A DNA stretch of 64,000 nucleotides from Callorhinchus milii (GCF_018977255.1 NW_024704749.1:8494001-8558000), one strand, 5' to 3'; numbered from the stretch's first letter, positions 18,701 through 29,100 are shown. Numbers and translations are program-made. Notes: a model not told the origin generated them from the sequence alone.

Positions 18701-19020
18701 ACTGTCACACACAGGTACACACACACACACACTGACACAAACACACACAGACAGNNNNNNNNNNNNNNNNNNNNNNNNNNNNNNNNNNNNNNNNNNNNNN
18801 NNNNNNNNNNNNNNNNNNNNNNNNNNNNNNNNNNNNNNNNNNNNNNNNNNNNNNNNNNNNNNNNNNNNNNNNNNNNNNNNNNNNNNNNNTCAGGTGTCAG
18901 TCAGACTGTGGGGAAGCGGCACACGGGCTTCTCTCACTCACCCGCCGCCGCCCGGGCGCCGCTCAGGGCCTGACACAGCAGCAGCAGCCACAGCTCCCGC
19001 CTCCCGCTCCCCGCCGCCAT
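9727..19020 (-). CDS. TCTN2: Tectonic-2 (ciliary transition zone, multi-exon)
   Basis: Exon 1 18942-19020 encodes a signal-peptide-like [26 protein letters not shown]. Internal exons encode [53 protein letters not shown] and [23 protein letters not shown]. Last exon has a TM segment ([18 protein letters not shown]), stop at 9727-9729. Confidence 0.95.
10830..11160. repeat. CA-rich minisatellite in a TCTN2 intron
   Basis: Units like CACGCACACTCCCCCACATACACAGATACAAA. Confidence 0.8.
11712..12029 (+). mobile_element. Full-length tRNA-derived SINE (Deu-like core, L2-like tail)
   Basis: A-box TAGCTCAGTGG, B-box GAGTTCAATTCC, core TGTGGGACATTGCTGTGCGCAATTGGCTGCCGCG, tail ...AAATGCAAGGA(TTA)n; nearly identical to the copy at 46394. 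Confidence 0.9.
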
Positions 19021-19164: not shown

Positions 19165-19530
19165 ATCAATCAGTCAATCAGTCAATCAATCAAATAATCA
19201 ATCAGTCAATCAATCAGTCAATCAATCAATCAGTCAATCAGTCAGTCAATCAGTCAGTCNNNNNNNNNNNNNNNNNNNNNNNNNNNNNNNNNNNNNNNNN
19301 NNNNNNNNNNNNNNNNNNNNNNNNNNNNNNNNNNNNNNNNNNNNNNNNNNNNNNNNNNNNNNNNNNNNNNNNNNNNNNNNNNNNNNNNNNNNNNNNNNNN
19401 NNNNNNNNNTCAGTCAATCAGTCAGTCAATCAGTCAGTCAATCAGTCAATCAATCAATCAAATAATCAATCAATCAGTTAATCAGTCAATCAACAATCAC
19501 TCAATCAATCAAATAATCAATCAATCAAAA
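19165..19530. repeat. (TCAA/TCAG)n tetranucleotide repeat with an internal gap
   Basis: Direct reading; N run 19260-19409. Confidence 0.9.
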
Positions 19531-20579
19531 TACGAAATATACAGTTAATTCACTTTACAGTACATTCCGTGAAGCACGTTGGGACGTGTGAACGAGGAGA
19601 TAAGGCGTTATATCAAATACGAGGTTTATTTATTATTACTTAGAGCACAAGATTACATTTGTAAACCGCCTGTCGCGTCGGGAGGTCGGGCCAAGGCGCT
19701 GAGCAGTCAAGGATTAGTGCGCAATAGTGGTATTGTACAATTAATAACACTATAATTAACATTGTATTTGATGTAATACAATCCTGACATTTGGCGCAGG
19801 GCTACTGCCATCAGCCTTCAAGTGCTTAAAGCACAGGATTTACTGTAAAGTGCAGCGACTCTGTTTCTTTCGCAGGTCAACGCGGCAGCCCACGTGCACG
19901 CGGCAGCGTGCTCGCAAACAGCCATGAAGTGGCTGAGGGATATAAACTTTATCCAGAGGGAATGTAATCAATGCTCCGGAATGCTTGCAGTCAGTTATGA
20001 TTAGAGAATAGCACTGTACAGTGTTAGACATTACAATATACAATCGATCACTGGGAGATGCTGAGCCGGGAGAGTTAGCGAAGGAGACATTCTCGAGGGA
20101 TTATTAGCAGTTTTGCAAGGTCCAGTGAGGCACAGTTATGTAACTCTCAGTGCTCGATGTAGGAGGTAAAACACCTCTGGGGAATCCGTTTAATATTCAT
20201 CCTCACATTCCTGCAGCAGATTTAGGCTCACTGAGCTCACATAATGTTCTCAATCTCTCTTTAACCAGCGCCACCAGTCTCCTTCCCCCTCCCCACCTCA
20301 GGAGCCCGGCTCTAAGTGCTTTAAGACGTTCCCAACGTGAAAGGCACTGTGTAAACGTATATTTGTACAGCATTATATTGGAATTAGTGTGCGGGATTAG
20401 ACTTTTTGCAGGATTGGAAACAAAATTGCACAAGTTTCAAACAATAAAACCGTTAATTTTGCTAAAACAAAATCAGGAGAGTGTGTGCGTGAGAAACAAA
20501 ACCCAGACAATCAGGGGGTAAATCAGTAACTTGGTTTCCATCAGTTATTCGCCTCAGTCTCCTCAGTGACAGGGAGCCA

Positions 20580-22460
20580 ATGTGCATCAGCCCTATAAAA
20601 CCCCGCTGCAATTGTAAGAAGCCCCAAGAAAAGAGCAAGATTGAATGCAAACCAGTAATCAACCGGTCAAGACGTCACCACCACCACATTTCCCCCTCTT
20701 GGTGGTTTGGAAACCTAGCGAGCAAGCCATCAATTGTATCACATCCCTTCCCTCCCCCCCCCCCCCCCCCATTTGTTCAGATCCCATTCATGACCAAAAG
20801 ACTGAATGGAAGCAGATGTCTCCACAAGCTCCCGCTGGGTTTATAGCTATTCGTTAATCCCCTGTGGCTAATGGTTAACGCTGAGTGAAACGCGGACAGG
20901 CTTAAGCTTCTGACACCAGCCAGTAACTGAGCTGTGTCTCAGTGGGTCAGCCCCTGCCTCATCCCCATTGCCACTCAATGCCTCACTCAATTCTCACAAG
21001 CAGACACACACACCCCACCCCCTCCGTTCACCATCCCGCATTCTCCCCTCTTTTCTCTGGAGACATCTTGAGAGCAGGGACGTCCCTGGGCTCCTCGGAA
21101 TGCCGACTAGTTCCCGCAGTAACCTCTGCTTCTCTCTGGCCTTGTTGCACGGAGGTGACCCTCTGTATGCTCGCTGGGCACCCGACCTCCTGACTGCGCC
21201 TCAGGCCGTACAGAACAAGTTCATCAAAGAACAAAGAGCTTTACTGGAGGTAGGTTCCTCGTTTACTCCAGTAACAATACAATGTCCTTCACACACTGTG
21301 ATGGTCAAACGGGTAGCCTGCAAAATGCATCCGACAAGCAGAGCAAATGCATTTGCCTACAAAATATACAGTCGCTCCATATCGCAGTAAATCCTGTGAA
21401 GCGCTTTAAGACGACTTTCAGACACGATAAAAAAAAAGCTACAACAAACGCAAGGATTACTACGATTATTACTCAATCCTCCAGGTGAAACTAGTTTACA
21501 ACGATAAAGAACAAAAGCTTTTTGGTTATAATGGCAAAACCCACAATCGTACTTTACTGTACTATATGCCCTGAGAAGCACACTTTGAGACGTCTCGACA
21601 AGGTGATGAGGCGCTGTGTCGCTATGTATTATTACTGTGATGAGATAGAGTCGAGTCAGTAAGACAAGGCAGGGGCTGGGAGGAGCGACTGAGACTGACG
21701 GTAGCTAAATCAATGGTTCACCCTCCCTCTCCTTCACTTCACAGTCCTTGAGGACAATAGAGCAGGAGAAAGTGGCCAGGATGAGGCAGCTGGCGAGGGA
21801 AAAACAACAATTTACCCTTCTTCTTAAGAAAAGAAAACTCTTTCCCAACAACAGAGGGGCTCCTCCTCCTGATCCCCTTCTCCCCCTCCCCCCACATCCC
21901 CCCAAAGTCCCTGGAGTCAGCACCAAGGCCTCTCACCCGCAGACACGACAAGGCTACAAGACAGAACATCCGGCAAAATGTCCATCCGCCACTGCGCAGG
22001 GCAACAAACACCATCAGGTCAGTGCCACCTGCACCCAAACCAGAGTTTCTTTTCAAAGCTCTGCGCACAACTCGGCCTCTCCGCGTTCCCCTCACAACCC
22101 ACTCATAGTCATTATACTTTGCAGTAAATCCTGTGACGCCCTCCTGATGTGAAAGGCGCTGAACCCGATTATTTATGATTCTCGGACCCGACGTCCCCGG
22201 CAAACGGCTGTTAAGTGAAGTGAACCACAACAAATTGCATTTACACAGCGCCTTTCACGTCAGGAGGACACCCCAAGGGGCTGAACTGAACAAGCGATCT
22301 TACCAGAGGAACTGTTGGCTGAAACAAAGTCTTTAATTTTGCCTTTTAGGCCTCGGGAGGATTCGCTGAGCCCGAGAGCGGGTGTCGCAGTGAGACTCTG
22401 CCACAGACACGCTTGCTCCCAGACCTCAGCCCACAAGTCTCCGCTTTCCAGCATCGCTGA
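20580..22460 (+). CDS. Candidate uncharacterised spliced gene, ~218 aa, coiled coil plus Pro-rich tail (5' end unresolved)
   Basis: Exons 20545/20580-20665, 21063-21249, 21745-22017 and 22350-22460 join in one open frame with AG/GT sites and matching phases (2,0,0). AATAAA at 22656-22661. No family firmly recognised. Confidence 0.55.
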
Positions 22461-23470
22461 CGAACAAGAAGAAGATTCCATTTATAGAGCGCCTTTCACG
22501 TCGGGAGGACGTCCTAAGGCGCTGGACAGTTGGGTCAAGACCCGAGCATTGGGGGGAAATGGTCAGGGTGAGGGAAGGGAGGGAACAAATACCTCTTCAG
22601 TGTTATTAAGCCACACACACACGCATATATACCCAACTAACAAAAAGGTTTTTGGAATAAAGTTGTAAACCGATGACCAGCGCCCTTGAAAAGAGTGGAT
22701 TAGTAAATTCCGGCCCGGAGTGATTTCCCTGCCACCATCACGGGTCCCCACCGTTGCATCCTCAGCTCCCAGCAGCCGTTAGTCACAGCCTCGACACCCG
22801 ATCTGTGCGGAGTCTGTCGGCAGTTGCAGCTTGCGGTTTGAATCGATGGGTCTTTTGACTCTGCCTGTCAGGGTTCACTCACTCACTTACTCACTCACTC
22901 AGACAGACGACCACCCACCCACGCACCCCGCCCCCACGCACACACACGCACCCACCCACAGAATGGAAGAAGCAGGAAAGGTACACATGGAACAAACTTA
23001 TAATGAAAATAATTCCTTAAACAAGGATTTACAGAGTTGCCTGGCGCCACGTGGTTTATTCTCGTTGCGAGAGGAGAGGTGATGTATTTACAAAGACCGT
23101 AGACATTACTCAGCAGATCCTCCCCGGGCGGTAAGGGGGGTGGGTGGAGGAGGGCTTCACAATATCCGCTCGTCCCACTGAGAGCTGCCAGCGCTCCCGC
23201 ACACTGGGCTTTACTGCTGCACGGAGAACGTACCACAGTCTCGGGGTTCTGAGCTGATTAACCTCACAGTGATGCTGGCTTGGGGGTGGGGGAGTGAGTT
23301 TACAGTATAAAAACGCACTGTTACAGTACAAAGCCACATTCCCCCCCCCCATATGTCCTTATTGTGGCTGCCGTAGTCAGGAAGGCATTGCCCGGTCACC
23401 GCCGGTTACAACAAACCCAACGCACGGCACGTTGCGTGTCACACTGCCTCGTGGCACGGCGAGGCTCAGC

Positions 23471-26400
23471 TCAGCTCACAAAGTAATTAGGCACCGACGG
23501 CTTCAACTTCTTCTTCTTAGCTTTGAGCACTGGTGGCAAAGCCATTCTGAACGCAGTCCTGGGCGAGGAATAAAATAACAGACGTGTTAGTTCACGATGA
23601 TAATATTAACCCTCGCATTCGGTACAGCGCCTTATCACACCGCTGAGACGTCTCAAAGCGCTTCGCAGGATATACTGTAAAGAGTAGCAACTGTGCATTT
23701 TGTGGGTGGAACGTAGCAGCCAATTGCCTCCCCACAAACAGTCGAGGATCGAGTGACCACATTTTATTTCGAAGGGAATATTACTCCCGGAAAGCGATCT
23801 TGCCAATCGACTAACCAGCGGGTTCCTACTTACTGTTAGGTAAACAGAAGTGTGTGAAGTCATGAAACACGAGTAAAGATTCCACCCCCACTTCCCACCC
23901 CCCCCCCCACACCGACTATAACACCTCCTGTCATACTAATAATAATAATCGCATTTGATGCAGCGCCTTATCTAGTCGTTCAAAGTGCTTCGCAGGATAC
24001 ACTGTGAAGTGTAGTGACTGTGTATTTTGTGGGTGAAACTGTACTTACTCGCATGTGGTGCAGATGGGGCTGAAGTTACAGAATACTAGAGAGTGAAAAC
24101 AAAGAGAGAGACGAGAGTTAAGACACCGAGCAAATCACCACGTCGCAGCGCGAGGGAACGGGAGCTGAGACTCACTGGACAGGCAGACGGAGCACACGTA
24201 GCCGATCTCGATCAGGTTCCGGTGACAGAAGCAGGCGGCCCGGTAATCCACGTGCACAGGGGGCGGCAGCACCAGCTGTGCCCGGTGCTCAGGGTCCGGC
24301 AGGAACACCCACTGCAGAGAGAACGGGCAACAGTCAGCAGGTGGCCCACCGCCCAACCCCAGCTCTCCCCCTCCTCCGGCGAGCGGCAGACACTACCGTG
24401 CTGGTCACCTCGCACAAGTGTCTGTGGCAACCGCATTTTTTTCGTGCCCAGAGTAAACCGGGCAAATGGCGGCTGTCACATAAATTGCCACAGGTCGGTA
24501 CTTGGGTAACCGGGCTTCAGGGTAATCCGCAACTCAGCCCGAGCGCGAGCGAAACTGCCGTCAGCTGCTCTCTTACCAGCAGGTACTGTGTGAGGGAGAG
24601 GGTCTGCGGGACTCGTAGATAAACACCTCCCGTGATATCACAGGCCTGCAGACACAAACATAGCGTCACATCACGTAACAAAGCACTGAGCGGTGTTAAA
24701 TATCAAGCCATTTCATGCTGAACTCTGCAGATAATCGCAAAGGGTCAGTGTTACACATCACAGCATGGCGTTACACAGCCTGGCACAGGGTTACACATCA
24801 TAGCATGGCATTACACAGCCTGGCACAGCATTACACATCACAGCATGGCATTACACAGCCTGGCACAGCATTACACATCACAGCATGGCATTACACAGCC
24901 TGGGACAGCGTTACACAGCTAGGGACAGCGTTACACAGCACAACTTGGAGCTTCTGGGCCAGAGCTCAGTTGCACTGAACGTACCTGTTGGAGGAGACCG
25001 GAATCAGAGTCCAACACACAGGCATCAATCAGGATGTTCTGGGTGGGGGAGAAAGGCAGAGTTTGTCGGACGTTTAAATATCGTTGGTTCCTGCAGCGTA
25101 AATTAAAGCAACTCAAAGCCAAGGTTTGTCGTCTACGGGAGAATAATTTCCGTTAATCACGTTTTTAGAAGAAAAAAAACCTTTTGGATACTAAACAACA
25201 AGATTACATTTGTATAGCGTCTTTCACGTCGGGAGAACGTCCGAATTAAACAGGCTCGAGTGACGGGGAGTGTGAGAGGATTCCTCTCTGCCCTGTGTGA
25301 CACACAGACAGCAAAGCCAGGCAACCTACCTGTTTCTGTGCCGCGAAGATCACATTCATAAAATTCATGTACTGAGCAGCACAGTCGTCTGCAGCTTTTA
25401 TAACCTGTGCCAAAAAAACAGCCAATTACAAGCTGCTCAAACCGCTCAACTGAAAGCACGAGTGATCAGCCGGAAGCAGTGAAACACTCACCAGGACTCG
25501 GGATTTCATCTCTCGGCCCGCTGTGTAATAAATAAAAACCAAATAAAAACCAGATTTGTGACACGTGGTAAGCTGCGGTTACACAACAATATCTGAGAAT
25601 CTCACTGAGAGAATTTACCACACGCGAGAGAGAGAGAGACAGAGAGCGAGCACCCACCTTCTAACTCCTTATTCACCTTGTGGATATCTGAATCGAAATC
25701 GCTCAGGAAAAAAAAAGGCTTAAAACCTACCTACGGTCACCTCCCCCTCCTCTCTTGCTCGGTGTCTGACCCTGGCCCTGTGCAGCACTCTGAGACGTTA
25801 CCCCACGTGACGGGCGCTGTGTAAATGCAGGTTTTTGTTATTGTACTGTGTAGATAATGTCGATAATAATCGGTGTTAAGATTTAATCACAGCGTAACTG
25901 AACACCAGACTCAGACAGGAAGTGCGTCCCTGCTGACACCCCGAGGAAGGATACAGCACAATGCCTTGGCCAGTGACCCCGCCAGCAAGGTCTCCATCAT
26001 GTGGGCTCTCACCTCAGCTGCAACACAAAGGGGGGGGCGGGCGGGAGATTTAAATCAACGCACCAATATTGTTTATTCCGGCCAAGATCTGACGGTTAGC
26101 TTGCGGACGCACAGAAGCTCACTCACTTTTCGCCATCAGATCCTTGACCTCCTCCGTGATCACGTCATCGCACACAGCTAGCAGCTCGTACTTCCCGTCT
26201 CGGCTGCCCGAGAAATTAGCTTCCGCTGAACCGTCGTCGCTATTTCCCATAAAGCTTCCCGGCTTCCAGTGTTTCCCCGGATACAGGAAGCGGCTGTGTT
26301 GTGTGCGGAGGAGAGACAGACGGGAGGATTCAAGTTTTTGGAGCATTTTTTGGTTTATAATATTAATCGTTGCGTTTGATACAACGCCTTATCGCACTGT

Positions 26401-28691
26401 CGAGACATAATTCTTTTAAAGGGATTTTTACCCCAGGAAAGCGATCCGCCGATCGACTAATAACCGGGTTCAGAGGCGTGTGGAGTAAGGAAACTCGCCT
26501 GAGGTTTCATACCATCCGGGAATTGAACCCGGGTCCTGTTGCTTGCGAGGCGAGTGCGCTGACCACTACGCGAAAGGACACCACACGTTGAAGTGATGGT
26601 TACAGGTGACGGCTGCCAGCGCCGAGTGCGCTAGCAGTGGTTTGCATACCTCTCCTGGCTGTGACTCGCTATGATAGCCAGGCTGTTACTGCGGCTCATG
26701 ACCAAGTGCGAGTTTCCCATCACCATCACCGCGTTCATGCAGTTCGTCAGCGTGAACTGTAAAACACAGGTCATCGAGACCCCGTCACCACGTACACAAC
26801 GTAAAAGAGAATCAGATGAACGTTTATATAGGGTTATGAGGGACAAGGGATGAAAGGGGGTGGGGGTGGGGGCGAGAGGCTCCATTGGAAAGCTCCCTCA
26901 GATAGTCGGGACAAGATCCCAATCAGTGTGCTCCTTACCTGGGATTGTTTCAACACCTGCTGTCCCCACCAGACAGGATTCACGTCCACCACGATCACCA
27001 GGAGGCTGACGTCCTGGTCTGAACAGACAGAAGGGCAGAGAGCGGTGACCAACGCTGACCACACCATCAGCAGCGGCGGCGGCGCCGGCACATCCCGAAG
27101 TACAGCGCTCTGGGAGGGCTGCTGCCCCGCGCGAGGGTAAAGGCACTACATGAACGCAAGCTGCTGTTGTTGTTGCTCACCAGCTCAGGGTAGTGACTGC
27201 GTCTCTGGAGCCCTGTGTAGTGACTGTGTCTCTGGAGCCCCGGTGTAGTGACTGTGTCTCCGGAGCCCTGTGTAGTGACTGTGTCTCTGGAGCCCTGTGT
27301 AGTGACTGTGTCTCTGAAGCCCTGTGTAGTGACTGCGTCTCTGGAGCCCTGTGTAGTGACTGTGTCTCTGGAGCCCCGGTGTAGCGACTGTGTCTCTGAA
27401 GCCCTGTGTAGTGACTGTGTCTCTGGAGCCCTGTGTAGTGACTGTGTCTCTGGAGCCCCTGTGTAGTGACTGCGTCTCTGGAGCCCCGGTGTAGTGACTG
27501 TGTCTCTGGAGCCCCGGTGTAGCGACTGTGTCTCTGAAGCCCTGTGTAGTGACTGTGTCTCTGGAGCCCTGTGTAGTGACTGTGTCTCTGGAGCCCTGTG
27601 TAGTGACTGTGTCTCTGGAGCCCTGTGTAGTGACTGCGTCTCTGGAGCCCTGTGTAGTGACTGTGTCTCTGGAGCCCCTGTGTAGTGACTGCGTCTCCGG
27701 AGCCCTGTGTAGTGACTGTGTCTCCGGAGCCCCTGTGTAGTGACTGTGTCTCCGGAGCCCTGTGTAGTGACTGTGTCTCCGGAGCCCTGTGTAGTGACTG
27801 TGTCTCCGGAGCCCTGTGTAGTGACTGTGTCTCCGGAGCCCTGTGTAGTGACTGTGTCTCCGGAGCCCTGTGTAGTGACTGTGTCTCTGGAGCCCCTGTG
27901 TAGTGACTGCGTCTCTGGAGCCCCGGTGTCGTGACTGTGTCTCTGGAGCCCCGGTGTAGCGACTGTGTCTCTGAAGCCCTGTGTAGTGACTGTGTCTCTG
28001 GAGCCCTGTGTAGTGACTGTGTCTCCGGAGCCCTGTGTAGTGACTGTGTCTCTGGAGCCCCTGTGTAGTGACTGCGTCTCTGGAGCCCCGGTGTAGTGAC
28101 TGTGTCTCTGAAGCCCTGTGTAGTGACTGTGTCTCTGGAGCCCGGTGTAGTGACTGTGTCTCCGGAGCCCTGTGTAGTGACTGTGTCTCCGGAGCCCTGT
28201 GTAGTGACTGTGTCTCTGAAGCCCTGTGTAGTGACTGCGTCTCTGGAGCCCCGGTGTAGTGACTGCGTCTCTGGAGCCCTGTGTAGTGACTGTGTCTCTG
28301 GAGCCCCTGTGTAGTGACTGTGTCTCTGGAGCCCCGGTGTAGTGACTGTGTCTCTGGAGCCCCGGTGTAGTGACTGCGTCTCTGGAGCCCCGGTGTAGTG
28401 ACTGTGTCTCTGGAGCCCCGGTGTAGTGACTGTGTCTCTGGAACCCCGGTGTAGTGACTGTGTCTCTGAAGCCCTGTGTAGTGACTGCGTCTCTGGAGCC
28501 CTGTGTAGTGACTGTGTCTCTGAAGCCCTGTGTAGTGACTGTGTCTCCGGAGCCCTGTGTAGTGACTGTGTCTCCGGAGCCCTGTGTAGTGACTGCGTCT
28601 CCGGAGCCCTGTGTAGTGACTGTGTCTCCGGAGCCCCGGTGTAGCGACTGCGAAGCCCTGAGATGCTCGGCTGATACTCACCGTCCGCCAT
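23471..28691 (-). CDS. GTF2H3: TFIIH p34 subunit (13 coding exons)
   Basis: Exon 1 28682-28691 (MAD); exon 2 26939-27018 ([14 protein letters not shown]). Later exons encode RFLYPGK...[20 protein letters not shown]|[48 protein letters not shown]...CSVCLS and [13 protein letters not shown]. Terminal KAKKKKLK..., stop 23471-23473. Confidence 0.97.
24750..24940. repeat. Tandem repeat, 40-bp unit of two 20-bp subunits
   Basis: TTACACATCACAGCATGGCA-TTACACAGCCTGGCACAGCA repeated about 4.5 times. Confidence 0.85.
25688..25954 (-). other. U12-type (minor spliceosome) GT-AG intron in GTF2H3
   Basis: 5' splice site GTATCCTTCC; branch-like TTTCCTGAGC about 15 nt from the AG; weak pyrimidine tract. Confidence 0.85.
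26360..26584 (-). mobile_element. Older SINE subfamily copy (tRNA head plus extra central segment, internally deleted)
   Basis: GAATTGAACCC B-box complement and GGAGTAAGGAAACT; central GGAAAGCGATC..CGACTAA segment recurs at ~23790 and in part at ~34265. Confidence 0.7.
27190..28650. repeat. Minisatellite, 27/28-bp unit, about 53 copies, in GTF2H3 intron 1
   Basis: Unit GTAGTGACTG(T/C)GTCTC(T/C)G(G/A)AGCCC(C)(T/G)GT in uninterrupted tandem. Confidence 0.97.
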
Positions 28692-28838
28692 CTTGCTCCG
28701 TGTGTGTGTGTGTGTGGGGGGGAGTGGGGGAGTGAGCGCGCGGCCCGCGGGGCCCGAGCTCTTGTTGCCGGGGGAAGAGTCAGCGGGACGGGACAACTTC
28801 CGCTTCCGGTAGCCGCCCCCGACATGAAGCCGACGATG
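28692..28838. promoter_or_regulatory. Bidirectional CpG promoter GTF2H3/EIF2B1
   Basis: Divergent start codons about 150 bp apart; tandem ETS/GABP-type ACTTCCGCTTCCGGT at ~28796-28810. Confidence 0.8.
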
Positions 28839-29100
28839 ATGGAGCAAACAGGTACCGACCGACAGACCGACAGACCGACCCCTCCCGGTGGCGGGAGGTG
28901 TATTGGAGGCGGTGCCAGAGTCCGTGTGTGGGGGTCTGGGCAGGTGTTGGTGTGTGTGTGTGTGACGCAGAGCAACAACGCTCTGCATTTATTATTAATA
29001 TTAATAATAATAATAATATTTGCATTTGATTCTTTTTTTTGTGTGAGGGTCAGAAACCCACCACTCCCCCCCTCCCCCCACACAGTGACCAAACACAACC

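Follow-up and report, generated by a model that had tools for sequence, protein, structure and literature searches.

Does the interval between TCTN2 and GTF2H3 in Callorhinchus milii contain a gene that has escaped annotation and, if so, what does it encode? A preliminary description of the window (the whole stretch of 64,000 nucleotides that was analysed, with positions counted from its first letter) had placed an unannotated multi-exon gene here, made of four plus-strand segments that join into one open reading frame (ORF) of 218 aa. The four segments, together with their phases and splice sites, were reproduced from the sequence. A spliced gene that very probably encodes a protein and is conserved in chondrichthyans was indeed found at this position; it has three exons instead of four, and the 218-aa model was left unsupported.

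Gene structure and splicing

Fourteen public sequencing runs cover the stretch (10 guessed to be RNA and 4 of unknown kind), and splicing was examined in six of the 10 RNA-guessed runs (X1–X6) and in one of the four others (X11). Contigs from these runs are evidence of presence, not of absence; rare variants are dropped from them and a start site cannot be fixed with them. The joint 21249/21745 (GT..AG) was present in X1, X2 and X4 and, counting a loose end in X5 that reads the next exon, in four of the six RNA-guessed runs, which represent three coded studies. The joint 22017/22350 (GT..AG) was present in X1, X2 and X4, i.e. in three of the four RNA-guessed runs covering it (two studies), so that both junctions predicted in the preliminary description were recovered. 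The two spliced donors score 5.4 and 4.6 bits with a rough home-made matrix. No spliced contig was seen in X3, and exon 1 was not covered in X6; neither point, nor contig depth, is read as a sign of tissue specificity. X11, which behaves like DNA, displayed a single 2419-nt contig running unspliced through 21249. A second copy of exons 1 and 2 was not found in the 991.5-Mb genome among the 40 scored of 839 candidates, so the joints cannot be put down to a processed copy. Between TCTN2 and GTF2H3 there is a three-exon, single-copy, spliced gene common to sharks and C. milii.

Exon 1 (20921..21249, plus strand) has its 5' end somewhere about 20921–21064: the contigs start at 20921 (X5, a 754-nt spliced contig), 21028 (X1) and 21064 (X2, with no loose end in front of this position), and all end at the donor 21249. 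Its coding part (21100–21249) specifies 50 aa. The ORF likely starts at the ATG at 21100..21102 (plus strand), which is the first in-frame ATG of the exon and the point at which the BLASTP alignment described below begins; the true start may lie elsewhere, since the horn shark model has 14 extra N-terminal residues. Exon 2 (21745..22017, plus strand), with joints on both sides, codes for 91 aa comprising the second half of a predicted long helix, a basic patch (KKRK), a Pro-rich linker and a conserved CPS. The coding part of exon 3 (22350..22460, plus strand), whose joint is the one seen in three of four runs, contributes 36 aa, followed by TGA, and includes a tail with an LPDL common to sharks. 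The resulting ORF encodes 50 + 91 + 36 = 177 aa (19.6 kDa, pI 10.1), and a pI of about 10.1 was calculated for all three proteins, the window's and those of two sharks. An out-of-frame upstream ATG at 20978 opens a 71-codon ORF (20978–21193) that overlaps the main ATG; it would be present in the longer 5' forms only and could damp translation.

The 3' UTR (22461..22661, plus strand) is largely filled by a young interspersed repeat at about 22459–22586, which extends from the stop codon onward and is 91–95% alike to many copies, and ends with a candidate poly(A) signal, the AATAAA at 22656. This signal, present as previously claimed, is the sole one between the stop codon and that of GTF2H3, and contigs at 22555–22870 extend beyond it. 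A further repeat match lies in the intron at about 21346–21483, and the scored repeat matches are not on coding stretches, in line with the preliminary description. Rfam returned no matches over 19400–23600. The protein of this species was not found in the protein collection by word-index searches with exon 2 alone (50–160 and 161–2000 aa), a weak search that also missed the 200-aa horn shark relative.

The preliminary description had placed a first exon at 20580..20665 (plus strand), spliced to an acceptor at 21063. The spliced X5 contig is contiguous from 20921 to 21249 and the X1 contig begins at 21028, both running straight through 21063; the donor at 20665 scores -2.4 bits, compared with 5.4 and 4.6 bits for the two spliced donors; and a 1-base deletion at 20597, found in X6 and X11 (two of four runs) and not listed for X1–X4, would stop the four-exon frame after 25 aa. 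What had been taken for the second exon is therefore the first. The 20580–20665 segment does not align with the horn shark protein (an equal or higher score was obtained with 718 of 1000 shuffles), and none of the six RNA-guessed runs contained a joint leaving 20665 or the 19876 segment. It is exceedingly improbable that the four-exon form of 218 aa exists as a minor isoform: its phases fit, the X2 contig starts at 21064, only one base away from the acceptor in question, and a rare form could have been dropped from the contigs, but the acceptor is GAG and the weak donor, the frameshift variant, the lack of homology of the extra segment and the read-through of 21063 by a spliced contig all argue against it. 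The alternative 5' exon at 19876..20004 (plus strand), which had been considered a possible true 5' end, is likewise unsupported. Unspliced contigs cross it, and the likeness of its 26-aa ORF (19924) to the shark N-terminus is reached by 11 of 1000 shuffles, but its score is 19 while 50 of 72 genomic control stretches reach 20, placing it at chance level. In the same region, unspliced contigs of unknown strand cover 19815–20730 in X1, X2, X3, X4 and X6, with an AATAAA at 20443; these may derive from divergent transcription at the TCTN2 promoter or from library DNA.

The flanking genes are those named in the preliminary description, as judged by Pfam matches. The likely first coding exon of TCTN2 (18900..19020, minus strand, ATG at 19020) lies head to head with the gene, which points away from TCTN2, as had been described; downstream of this ATG there is a Tectonic domain match (E 0.0009, under the Pfam cut-off). 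The last exon and 3' UTR of GTF2H3 (23050..23558, minus strand), covered by contigs and with a candidate poly(A) signal at 23055, lie tail to tail with the gene, and the minus-strand exon at about 23474–23558 matches TFIIH p34 (E 0.00026). The observed 5' ends are about 1.9–2.0 kb from the TCTN2 start codon, and the link to this ciliary gene is one of adjacency only. Further along the window, Pfam supports DEAD (weak), IF-2B, EMP24, RH1 and SET genes, which fit what we take to be the human order (KMT5A, RILPL1, TMED2, DDX55, EIF2B1, GTF2H3, TCTN2). Two side observations were made. A long minisatellite-like repeat on the minus strand (27070–28988), between the end of GTF2H3 and the EIF2B1 match, contains open frames of 536 and 603 codons that are probably non-coding. 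Elsewhere in the genome, two stretches of C31 at 3.619 and 3.628 Mb (L016 and L017), unrelated to the gene, have identical weak scores 9 kb apart, which suggests a local duplication.

Shark relatives and sequence variation

When exon 2 was searched against 1.84 billion protein representatives, a single match was obtained: XP_067910614.1 (E 2.5e-7), an uncharacterized 200-aa protein of the horn shark Heterodontus francisci. The 177-aa model aligns with this protein with 59 of 132 residues identical (45%; BLASTP, E 1e-32), Met1 falling on Met15, and the alignment is gapless over the first 78 residues and spans the first joint; the additional N-terminus of the preliminary description adds nothing to it. 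Counted per 13 residues, identity over the first 78 is 3, 4, 6, 10, 6 and 7, with the peak (10/13) at residues 40–52, within the helix. The two are reciprocal best hits: searched back against the genome, the horn shark protein finds only exons 1 and 2 (E 2.3e-8 and 5.5e-5; next 3.1), such that two of eight matches have E < 1, both at the locus. A profile search added scyTo_0021688 (GCB82699.1), a 115-aa protein of the catshark Scyliorhinus torazame (E 4.3e-38; two matches among 764 candidates). The conservation in other chondrichthyans that had been anticipated is thus seen in horn shark and catshark, and we consider it very probable that the gene is the protein-coding orthologue of the shark genes.

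Beyond horn shark and catshark, no other annotated shark or ray relative was found. Searches with one exon as query and a word index, which are weak, found no relatives outside the chondrichthyans, and absence from bony vertebrates is suggested; searches of this strength do not separate a lineage-restricted gene from one that was lost in mammals or has diverged. The ESM Atlas gave no usable match by features, only unnamed structure rows of low score. No paper was found that cites the shark accessions, no title or abstract start among papers on TCTN2 with GTF2H3 describes such a gene, and searches on synteny and gene loss returned nothing. The shark proteins are known as uncharacterized GenBank predictions, and the family itself is unnamed and undescribed.

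Both variants in exon 2 (21798 and 21840) are synonymous, two silent changes being too few to show selection. In exon 3, a C>T change at 22404 creates a nonsense codon (Q160*) in X2 and X3 (two of four runs). It removes the last 18 residues, including the LPDL common to sharks, and, located in the last exon, spares the conserved part of the protein; X2, which carries it, has both splice joints. An allele is favoured over editing as the origin of Q160*, because the X3 contig that carries it is unspliced. The frame of exon 3 that is used resembles the horn shark tail to a degree reached by 13 of 1000 shuffles (637 and 454 for the other frames), and the catshark tail less clearly (62 of 1000 shuffles). 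Both sharks have the tail motif LKRxSSLPxL, a sequence that agrees with the consensus both for 14-3-3 mode I binding and for AMPK-family kinases; short patterns of these kinds are frequent by chance. The window's protein keeps LPDL at this place without the serine; its tail, which aligns poorly, contains RxxTxP at 154–159, six residues before LPDL, and the AMPK-like pattern is absent. On these few variants, constraint seems to act on the core and to be relaxed in the tail in this species.

Predicted shape and proposed role

AlphaFold2, given the horn shark sequence and an alignment of five rows, predicted helices at residues 3–9, 19–31, 35–45 and 49–94, with pLDDT values of 82–96 for residues 41–90 and below 50 for the tail (mean 57, pTM 0.31). 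In the predicted shape, two short helices form a hairpin, a 46-residue amphipathic helix comes next, and the chain continues through a basic patch and a Pro-rich linker into a tail that has no fixed shape. The helix that the preliminary description had drawn across the 21249/21745 joint is thus predicted in the shark relative as well. Of the nine angles tested, 100 degrees gave the long helix its highest hydrophobic moment in each of the two species (0.86 and 0.88, compared with 0.68 and 0.79 at 103 degrees, the heptad value), so the helix is straight and one-sided, and a leucine zipper is not clearly indicated. A homodimer prediction for shark residues 15–100 gave a score of 0.01, which speaks neither for nor against a dimer. 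Neither the three pieces of the window nor the two shark proteins were assigned to a Pfam family, and a DUF723 hit on the open frame around exon 1 (E 0.011, under the cut-off) was dropped as chance. Foldseek gave no match at E 0.001 or better, VIA-align returned nothing more specific than generic long helices (no match reached Z 8, and the best had Z 6.1, rmsd 2.1 and 54 aligned), and the best match to the PDB by sequence had an E of 1.5. A lone helix does not discriminate among structure matches, including those to solved axoneme chains.

No catalytic or membrane features are evident in the 177-aa basic protein, and from this we infer that the helix would use its conserved face to dock on a partner. 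The protein probably acts as a helix-docking adaptor, a reading we hold with moderate confidence and which draws on the predicted model. In such an adaptor, the 46-residue amphipathic helix would pack against the partner, the conserved approximately 80 residues would form the binding unit, and the basic patch and Pro-rich linker would position this unit. The tail might tune docking by phosphorylation, more clearly in sharks than in the window's species. A role mainly in the male germ line or sperm is a tentative suggestion to which we give less than even chances, by analogy with small, fast-evolving, single-copy basic genes.

A rival proposal is that the protein is a structural component of sperm flagella or motile cilia, its helix lying along a microtubule or an accessory structure in the manner of microtubule inner proteins. 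A small, basic protein with one long helix of 3.6-residue periodicity and a low-confidence tail would suit such a position, and the gene is head to head with TCTN2, which we take to be ciliary. Axonemal proteins, however, are usually conserved well beyond one class and the relatives found here are in two sharks only; moreover, some 2 kb separate the 5' end from TCTN2, so there is no clear sign of a shared promoter. We regard this proposal as unlikely. Quite unlikely, too, is its historical extension, in which the gene would belong to an old chondrichthyan family that was already present in the GTF2H3–TCTN2 block of the jawed-vertebrate ancestor, provided part of the sperm or the cilium and disappeared from bony vertebrates.

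The variant in exon 3 raises a different explanation, namely that the gene is decaying, still transcribed and spliced while its protein is no longer needed, as in an early unitary pseudogene or what is effectively a lncRNA. Besides the presence of Q160* in X2 and X3, the diverged tail, the young repeat directly behind the stop and the failure to find the species' own protein in the protein collection are consistent with decay. Set against this are a 177-codon frame that is intact, its gapless 78-residue match and both its ends near those of the shark protein; the nonsense variant, falling within the last exon, leaves the conserved part untouched, and neither variant of exon 2 alters the protein. 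We therefore judge decay decidedly improbable and prefer a functional protein that probably docks on a partner through its helix.

This is a modest finding, useful for annotation and for gene-loss studies; the mechanism is not among what is new. An annotation gap is corrected, and two isolated "uncharacterized" shark predictions become a supported family, for which a likely start codon can be given and a conserved core told apart from a variable tail. If the host is a chimaera, as its small genome and its distance from the two sharks suggest, the gene would have persisted for some 400 million years. It would then be either a chondrichthyan invention or a bony-vertebrate loss inside a block that, going by the presumed human order, is otherwise conserved to humans, and the gene would offer a clean case in which to test how genes were gained and lost as jawed vertebrates arose.

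Comparison with CCDC190 and the shark proteins

The preliminary description had likened the helix to CCDC190-type proteins. CCDC190 (C1orf110) is small and has a long N-terminal helix, and its Leu and Glu spacing looks similar by eye. The genome has its own genuine CCDC190 on C5 at about 10.98 Mb (L010 and L009), with N- and C-terminal blocks over the Pfam cut-off, and its first exon served as a positive control, scoring 44.6 bits on PF15768. With a cut-off of 27 bits, neither shark protein nor the window's frames matched this Pfam family (CC190). In comparisons with one CCDC190 sequence, the best ungapped scores were equalled or exceeded in 443 and 236 of 1000 shuffles, and hhalign gave a probability of 0.5%, so the likeness did not rise above shuffle level. 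The C-terminal block of CCDC190 (model positions 216–270) has no counterpart in the window's protein, the family search matching C5 only. The spacing of Leu and Glu, which by eye resembles that in the first exon of the genome's CCDC190, would be accounted for if the protein were a distant paralogue of CCDC190 or of some other named coiled-coil family and had kept the N-terminal helix alone; with no PF15768 match where the true exon scores 44.6 bits, similarity at the level of shuffles and the C-terminal block missing, we consider such kinship highly improbable.

The closest known counterparts are the two shark proteins, both galeomorph, which are 70–74% alike mutually, from mid-helix to end, compared with 45% identity between the horn shark protein and the window's. 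GCB82699.1 has the same tail motif as the horn shark protein; its model starts at an internal Met, is likely 5'-incomplete and covers only the last third of the conserved region. XP_067910614.1 differs from the window's protein by 14 extra N-terminal residues and a longer tail with LKRASSLPDL, whereas the tail of the window's protein is shorter and diverged and carries Q160*. The two nevertheless have CPS and LPDL in common, and their C-terminal ends nearly coincide.
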